Sequence record: MG050172
Strand: one strand, 5' to 3'
Length of the DNA stretch: 45,814 bases
DNA from: Escherichia phage DTL
Part shown: one piece after another, positions 10,105 to 10,722 of the stretch
Layout of the letters: each line of letters begins with the position of its first letter
Position numbering within the stretch: the first letter of the stretch is position 1
Translations under genes and position numbers: made by a program
The notes under the pieces: model-generated
What the model saw: only the letters and a program-made list of their open reading frames with translations
What the model was told of the DNA's origin: nothing
Database searches by the model: none

Positions 10105-10722
10105 ATGGCTAAAATCATCATTCTTAACGGTCCAGCAGGAGTAGGAAAGGACACTATCGGCAACGCGATTGCTAAAGATTACAATGGCATAATGACGAGC
10201 TTTAAGCGTCCTATGTTTGAGATCGCAGCTTCAATCCTAGGTGATCTAGCGTTCAGTAAGTTCATTACTGCTTATGATGACCGAGATCAGAAAGAGCTGC
10301 CTCACGATTTCCTTGGTGGCAAGTAATGTCGTGAGTTCATGATCTGGATTAGCGAGTCTGTGGTAAAGCCGCTATTTGGCGACCGGCAATTCGGAAAGTT
10401 AATGAGTGAACATATCAGGATTTGTGACGATGTATTTAGCTTTGTTTGCACTGATGGCGGTTTCCCTGATGAAGTTATCCAGCTTGTTGAAGATGGTCAC
10501 GATGTTACCCTGGTCCGGCTGTTTATGGACGGCAAGACCTTCGAAGGAGATAGCCGTGATTACATCAGCATCAAGGGGTTACTCTCCCATAACTACAAAA
10601 GATACAGTGAGCATGATGTTCATCTGGTAAATGGTGATATTGAAGGCGGTGTTCTTGCGGTTGCTGAGGCTTGCGGCCTGCGACCTAAGATTGACGAATT
10701 GGCCGACGATATTCCCCGGTAA
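10105..10722 (+). pseudogene. dNMP kinase-like P-loop kinase (T4 gp1-like) interrupted by in-frame TAA at 10324..10326
   Basis: Walker A ILNGPAGVGKDT; both halves are in one frame and resemble the T4 dNMP kinase as recalled from memory; single ochre codon between them. Confidence 0.55.

Follow-up and report, generated by a model that had tools for sequence, protein, structure and literature searches.

Escherichia phage DTL (MG050172 / NC_047893) carries an in-frame TAA codon, at positions 10324..10326, inside what resembles a gene for a deoxynucleoside monophosphate (dNMP) kinase. The question raised by this locus is whether the codon marks a boundary between two genes, is an error of the record, is bypassed by the ribosome or has put an end to the enzyme. 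The window analysed here, 45,814 nt long, is the complete genome. The phage, a T1-like siphovirus, comes from crude lysate of an industrial fermentation in which an E. coli K-12 FM5 derivative produced 1,3-propanediol; 454 pyrosequencing gave its genome as a single contig, and annotation was automatic, with RAST (PMC5816109). In the public record the ORF at 10075..10326 (83 aa) is HOS46_gp17 and that at 10339..10722 (127 aa) is HOS46_gp18, the latter being 100% identical to the 127-aa ORF read from the window. Table 1 of the genome paper gives the two as ORF18 (252 bp) and ORF19 (384 bp) with one best match, SP126_00225 of Salmonella phage FSL SP-126, and the split passes there without comment (PMC5816109).

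Both ORFs lie in one frame on the plus strand and are parted by nothing but the TAA at 10324-10326, as the preliminary description of this DNA had reported. The true start of the kinase is likely ATG 10105, because the Shine-Dalgarno-like GAGGA at 10091..10095 (+), 9 nt 5' of it, pairs with the 16S rRNA tail at -5.9 kcal/mol and because its position matches the MAK/MSK start of the relatives. That energy is within the range of the genome's real starts (median -6.6, n=50), whereas ATG 10075 has no Shine-Dalgarno sequence and a corresponding value of only -1.4 kcal/mol. The end of a conserved 43-codon ORF (9981..10112, +) overlaps the kinase start by 8 nt, a context for translational coupling; this upstream ORF is 98% identical to JeanPiccard bas02_0066 and 91% identical to AugustePiccard bas01_0068. 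The reading frame that begins at ATG 10105 is 618 nt long and has one stop codon as its sole interruption. Its N-terminal 73 codons (10105..10323, +), the only part of the kinase expected to be translated efficiently, contain the Walker A motif announced in the preliminary description, GPAGVGKDT at 10129..10155 (+), which fits the P-loop pattern GxxGxGK[D/S/T] and in which G14, K15, D16 and T17 are invariant among 31 homologs. Codon 74 is the ochre TAA, followed by T (UAAU in the message). The remaining 131 codons (10327..10722, +) are open up to a normal TAA end at 10720-10722, of which the annotation covers only 10339..10722. They begin with four sense codons, TGT CGT GAG TTC (CREF), and then reach the ATG of gp18 at 10339..10341 (+). 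This ATG is no new start but encodes the ancestral Met of the conserved EFMIW motif, a residue conserved in nearly all aligned homologs. Just 3' of the kinase stop, a GC-rich hairpin, CCCTCTCCGGAGGG, is found at 10741-10754 and is followed by TTCTGTT; its position matches an annotated terminator in ETEP102, although it lacks the T-run sought by the terminator scan.

In the relatives the kinase is one protein of 194-211 aa. Among 120 database homologs in a protein alignment, 118 could be scored at the interrupted position: 103 have T there and 15 have S, and none has a stop. The position falls within FLGGK[T/S]CREFMIWISE, the most conserved stretch of the family in this alignment. Likewise, no stop interrupts any of the 90 tblastn alignments in which a fetched relative is matched across codon 74. 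The preliminary description had placed the stop inside a conserved core rather than between two genes, had proposed an ortholog alignment as the way to find the sense codon, and had named as the refuting case a set of relatives with two proteins meeting at this point. The alignment returns Thr or Ser in every one of the 118 sequences and a single protein in all relatives, so that its placement of the stop holds. A chance juxtaposition of two ORFs is ruled out by the same observations. One apparent exception, a 127-aa 'split' homolog (P0091), is an artefact of gene calling at an N-gap of its scaffold (L004), the DNA of which reads GGKTCREF.

At the DNA level, the 11 closest relatives have ACG, ACC or ACA at codon 74, which puts TAA at least two substitutions away. 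The codon is AGC, TCN, ACT, ACC or AGT in 64 further IMG/VR loci. TCA, from which TAA is reached by one C-to-A step, occurs in 14 of these 64, all of them more distant members of the family. A degenerate DNA pattern allowing any stop or TGG at codon 74 retrieved DTL only from IMG/VR and nothing from the JGI metagenome contigs, and a search with the 83-aa fragment for other genomes with a stop at this codon again returned DTL only.

By homology, the locus is assigned to a T1-family (Drexlerviridae) gene for a dNMP-kinase-like P-loop enzyme. Joined across the stop, the 205 residues match PHROG 139, 'deoxynucleoside monophosphate kinase', over residues 1-190 (E=6.4e-42). Direct orthologs are the Drexlerviridae proteins of PHROG 139 described as 'putative P-loop NTPase' (for example TLS gp14, JeanPiccard bas02_0067, ETEP102_14), and a close subgroup of Drexlerviridae kinases shares 73-89% amino-acid identity with DTL, together with the neighbourhood and the motifs. 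The resemblance to T4 gp1 noted earlier stands for the fold and for the family name. It does not stand at the level of sequence. An AF2 model of a relative (pLDDT 89.7) has T4 gp1 (1DEK) as its top structural match, and the predicted structure is an NMP-kinase fold closest to that protein. In contrast, searches of the joined kinase against Pfam and NCBIfam gave only sub-threshold P-loop matches, with no family over threshold, and the family profile run against PDB sequences produced P-loop noise without reaching 1DEK. Indeed, the identity between T4 gp1 and the DTL kinase family is only 11-16%, and T4 gp1 (241 aa) is longer than the DTL-type kinase (~205 aa), which in DTL is moreover broken by the TAA.

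The position of the break is informative in the same model. The 73 codons before the stop correspond to strand 1, the P-loop, helix 1, strand 2 and helices 2-3, and residue 74 is the N-terminus of a helix (75-91) that separates strands 1-2 from strands 3-5. Judging from this model, neither fragment would fold alone into the five-stranded core. Nor does the locus look like a functional split gene, since none of the relatives is split here and the break cuts the core sheet itself. A member of PHROG 139 would be expected to have ~190-210 uninterrupted codons, and those examined have Thr or Ser at codon 74. DTL alone has a stop, and because of this TAA its copy is a disrupted member of the family, that is, a pseudogene. 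A second cluster, phrog_31701 ('unknown function', 89 positions), matches kinase residues 1-77 (10105-10335; E=4e-43), a stretch which extends past the DTL stop. It looks like a collection of N-terminal fragments of disrupted PHROG 139 kinases.

A sequencing or assembly error would be the simplest way to dispose of the codon: the real phage would have a sense codon such as TCA or ACA, and the TAA would be an artefact of a 454 contig built from crude lysate. The provenance of the record, one 454 contig made from unpurified lysate and annotated automatically, lends this some weight, and TAA at codon 74 has been seen nowhere else. A second argument comes from the tail region. A perfect 121-nt tandem duplication (27344-27464 / 27465-27585) lies inside the homolog of tail-tip protein L (251 aa in relatives) and shifts the frame, so that this essential gene is split into ORFs 26925-27467 and 27271-27813. 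The duplication is probably an assembly artefact, for instance an untrimmed contig-end overlap, and the true genome would therefore measure ~45,693 bp. The DTL paper gives the ORF of the duplicated tail gene L as 756 bp (PMC5816109). Directly 3' of this gene is one of six regions, scattered over the genome, that match an HNH homing-endonuclease of 2725-N35 with 43-48% identity (1794-2153, 6572-6994 (-), 27879-28349, 35110-35577, 40976-41443 (-) and 44067-44534).

The error load of the record was estimated from ten conserved genes (~9.2 kb) in DTL and five related genomes by counting the codon changes private to each. Random errors are expected to give ~3 nonsynonymous changes per synonymous one. 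DTL has 122 private synonymous and 23 private nonsynonymous changes, a ratio of 0.19 that lies within the range of the other five genomes (0.10-0.24). Base-call errors in DTL must be rare, since its private changes are mostly synonymous. Were every one of the 23 nonsynonymous changes an error, the expected number of stop-creating errors in the three genes of the record affected by nonsense codons (see below) would still be under ~0.2. Typical 454 errors are homopolymer indels, not substitutions, and the change at codon 74 is a substitution of one to three bases which keeps the frame. Taken with the stop shared by independent assemblies of a neighbouring gene, described next, these points make the error option raised in the preliminary description very improbable.

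When the annotated CDS of relatives were searched against the DTL genome by tblastn, two further in-frame stops came to light in the rightward early operon, besides the kinase TAA. The scan was restricted to CDS because an unfiltered six-frame scan for stops is swamped by noise from non-coding frames. The other DTL genes with a match among these CDS, ~60 in number, showed no in-frame stop. The first of the two, in what we call gene A (8671..9195, +), is a TAG at codon 141 (9091..9093), where relatives have GAG or GAT. The second, in gene B (9277..9513, +; 78 codons), is a TAG at codon 29 (9361..9363), where the closest relative, a Logan contig (L109, from ERR12661060), has GAG. The same contig is the closest relative for gene A too (95% amino-acid identity) and has GAG at codon 141 as well. 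Both TAG codons are G-to-T changes.

Of 120 homologs of gene A, more than 110 are 173-177 aa long. The identical TAG is present in a separate lineage (L103-L108) that has no kinase and is ~89% identical to DTL across the locus; several ENA assemblies contribute contigs with this TAG, at least 24 independent ones in all. The gene A homologs of L103 and L102 lie at 4001-4525 and 28059-28583 (minus strand), respectively. In the Veterinaerplatzvirus 12210I group, which is a third lineage, codon 140, adjoining the DTL stop, is TGA. The 34 codons 3' of the stop are open and conserved in DTL, in the TAG lineage and in 12210I. In phage EC3a (vB_EcoS_CEB_EC3a, KY398841; L018, 301-822) the gene A homolog has a stop of its own elsewhere (NANGYRS*NKFWG), and the annotation splits it into two CDS, Ec3a_01A and Ec3a_02. 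An apparent constraint on the post-stop segment of gene A was discarded: 5 synonymous and 0 nonsynonymous differences between DTL and L103 are obtained only in a window picked after viewing the data, and the full segment gives ~5 synonymous and 6 nonsynonymous differences between these two, and 6 and 5 between DTL and L109.

These comparisons indicate that the in-frame stops of the early operon are real, heritable alleles, an indirect argument that the kinase TAA is real as well. For the repeated appearance of a stop at codons 140/141 of gene A, candidate explanations are a leaky stop, selection for a short isoform and a mosaic junction. The gene A stop is an established, recurrent boundary allele, which could, with long odds against it, be a leaky stop that sets the ratio of short to long isoforms.

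The same cluster bears on whether the kinase stop is bypassed, either by low-level readthrough or suppression (for instance in an ochre-suppressing host that would also read both TAG codons) or by reinitiation at ATG 10339, in which case the two fragments would have to reassemble into an active kinase. In favour of bypass, TAG, TAG and TAA amount to three nonsense codons in one operon, and in gene A two lineages keep the stop while a third has one at the adjacent codon. In the kinase itself, the downstream 131 codons are open and retain every invariant residue. Terminating ribosomes can reinitiate over a short distance, as in translational coupling, and ATG 10339 is within that range, just 12 nt past the stop.

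Several observations weigh against any such bypass. UAA followed by U is the strongest termination context in E. coli. In DTL it is an ordinary stop: TAA ends 25 of 47 genes and TAAT ends 6. Because TAA is the commonest genuine terminator, the code of the phage must be standard. The phage itself encodes no suppressor tRNA, although its host, a K-12 FM5 derivative, could have one. The sole tRNA found in DTL is a tRNA-Arg(UCU) at 12077-12154 (ARAGORN; Rfam, 55.5 bits), whereas a published comparison states that DTL is without a tRNA-Arg gene (PMC8421802). No stimulatory RNA structure is predicted in the 100 nt after the stop, where folding equals that of shuffled sequences (z = 0.16), and an Rfam search gave no match there. 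Nor is the stop conserved in any ortholog, be it among the 118 scored proteins, the 90 spanning alignments, the other IMG/VR sequences or the JGI contigs. Programmed readthrough as in the A1 protein of Q-beta shares with DTL an in-frame stop and an open, conserved continuation. However, known readthrough relies on leaky UGA or UAG contexts that are conserved across relatives, unlike the UAA-U of DTL, which occurs in one genome and is without a stimulatory element. Frameshifting or hopping across the stop can be dismissed, since the frame is unchanged past the TAA and no matching landing codon is nearby.

Reinitiation fares no better. ATG 10339 has no ribosome-binding site: its pairing energy, -2.3 kcal/mol, is that of the background of all ATG codons (median -2.45), and only 2% of the real DTL starts are as weak or weaker. 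Moreover, an out-of-frame ATG within TAATG (10326-10328) opens a two-codon mini-ORF and would take reinitiating ribosomes before they arrive at ATG 10339. A two-piece enzyme would also have to be rejoined through its central beta-sheet, the break not being at a domain boundary. Thus no observation favours programmed readthrough or an enzyme designed to work in two pieces, and the suggestion of readthrough in the preliminary description is left unsupported. Low-level suppression or readthrough has a slim chance of being at work here, and so has reassembly of the fragments after reinitiation.

If the stop is neither an error nor bypassed, the phage must manage with a broken gene, and its relatives suggest that this is no hardship. 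The dNMP kinase of T1-like phages is described as an accessory gene for nucleotide salvage that only part of the family has (PMC11447400, PMC13164509). The closest whole genomes to DTL (~86-89% identity; 2725-N35, vB_Ec-G8, IME253, BEK1-1 and the 12210I group) are all without it; in BEK1-1 its place is taken by an unrelated ORF of 87 aa. Other relatives have lesions of their own. In one Logan contig (L005) codon 126 of the kinase has gone from CAG to an amber TAG, in another relative (L112) a deletion fuses codon ~95 to the next gene, and in three more (L087, L095 and L097) the gene has suffered frameshifts or rearrangements. From these genomes, the kinase gene is seen to be dispensable in the phage group of DTL, since the closest genomes lack it and at least five relatives have disrupted it independently. 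In this respect DTL resembles the accessory-gene pseudogenes of other sequenced phages, which likewise have a single lesion in a non-essential early gene. What sets DTL apart from such ordinary pseudogenes is only that three nonsense codons cluster in a single operon.

Apart from its stop, the DTL kinase is remarkably intact. Set against an alignment of 31 diverse homologs, it departs from none of the 45 invariant columns and from none with conservation of 90% or more, even though ~12% of its residues differ from those of the nearest relative. Its deviations at conserved columns number 4, against a median of 1, and since 14 of 87 homologs have 4 or more it is no significant outlier. Long neutral drift should have struck conserved columns, so that either the stop is young relative to the divergence of DTL from its relatives or the frame is still under selection. 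Pairwise dN/dS against the 11 relatives was set aside as uninformative: it is 0.04-0.17 for both the N- and the C-terminal parts, and the divergence that it measures predates the stop.

The reading that best accounts for these observations is a recent ochre loss-of-function mutation in one dispensable, accessory dNMP-kinase-like gene, to which we give a probability of about 0.78. A nonsense mutation was among the options of the preliminary description, and it is the one that emerges well supported, by the single ORF of the relatives, by a stop unique to DTL and by the normal ratio of private changes. Translation would begin at ATG 10105 and end efficiently at UAA-U. The 73-residue product, which has the P-loop but only two of the core sheet's five beta-strands, would not attain the kinase fold, and the downstream 131 codons would remain essentially untranslated. 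As an accessory nucleotide-salvage function not needed by the phage group, the kinase could be lost without penalty; growth on an E. coli K-12 monoculture in an industrial fermenter would have allowed its loss to be tolerated and may even have favoured it. The mutation would be young relative to the divergence of DTL, because the rest of the frame is undamaged.

Some facts sit less comfortably with a recent loss-of-function mutation. The TAA rests on the one DTL record, in which at least one probable assembly artefact is present elsewhere, and it is two or more substitutions removed from the ACN of the 11 closest DNA relatives. The undamaged downstream frame also fits continued expression. Finally, three nonsense codons without any frameshift exceed what simple neutral decay would produce, and hint at selection or suppression.

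One version of selection holds that positive selection favoured loss of the kinase and both its neighbours, genes that may, for instance, have been costly in the production strain or have triggered a host response. About six genes lie in 8671-10722 and three of them carry nonsense codons, against none of the ~60 other matched genes; the affected frames are otherwise healthy, and the kinase has been lost repeatedly in relatives. However, the cost or the sensing system is purely conjectural, the numbers are small, and the gene A stop predates the fermenter episode, since it is common to another lineage. An adaptive knock-out is rather unlikely, if less so than error or bypass. It is a refinement of the loss-of-function reading, with the same molecular outcome, and not an exclusive alternative to it. 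It is also conceivable, with long odds against it, that the nonsense codons at 9091, 9361 and 10324 share a cause, either growth on a host that suppresses nonsense codons or selection in favour of early proteins that are truncated or made in low dose. If that were true, the kinase TAA would represent a tolerated or regulated down-tuning rather than a dead gene.

For the annotation of DTL, the consequence is that HOS46_gp17 and HOS46_gp18 need to be joined into one dNMP-kinase-like gene, marked as disrupted. The kinase stop is in itself a familiar kind of feature and changes little for the field. A more intriguing lead is the cluster of nonsense codons, above all the recurrent gene A stop at codon 140/141. 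As to biology, DTL is an industrial contaminant that grows lytically without an intact kinase. The dNMP kinase of T1-like phages thereby gains added evidence of being a dispensable salvage gene, one that has been lost repeatedly by nonsense mutation, frameshift, deletion and cassette replacement.
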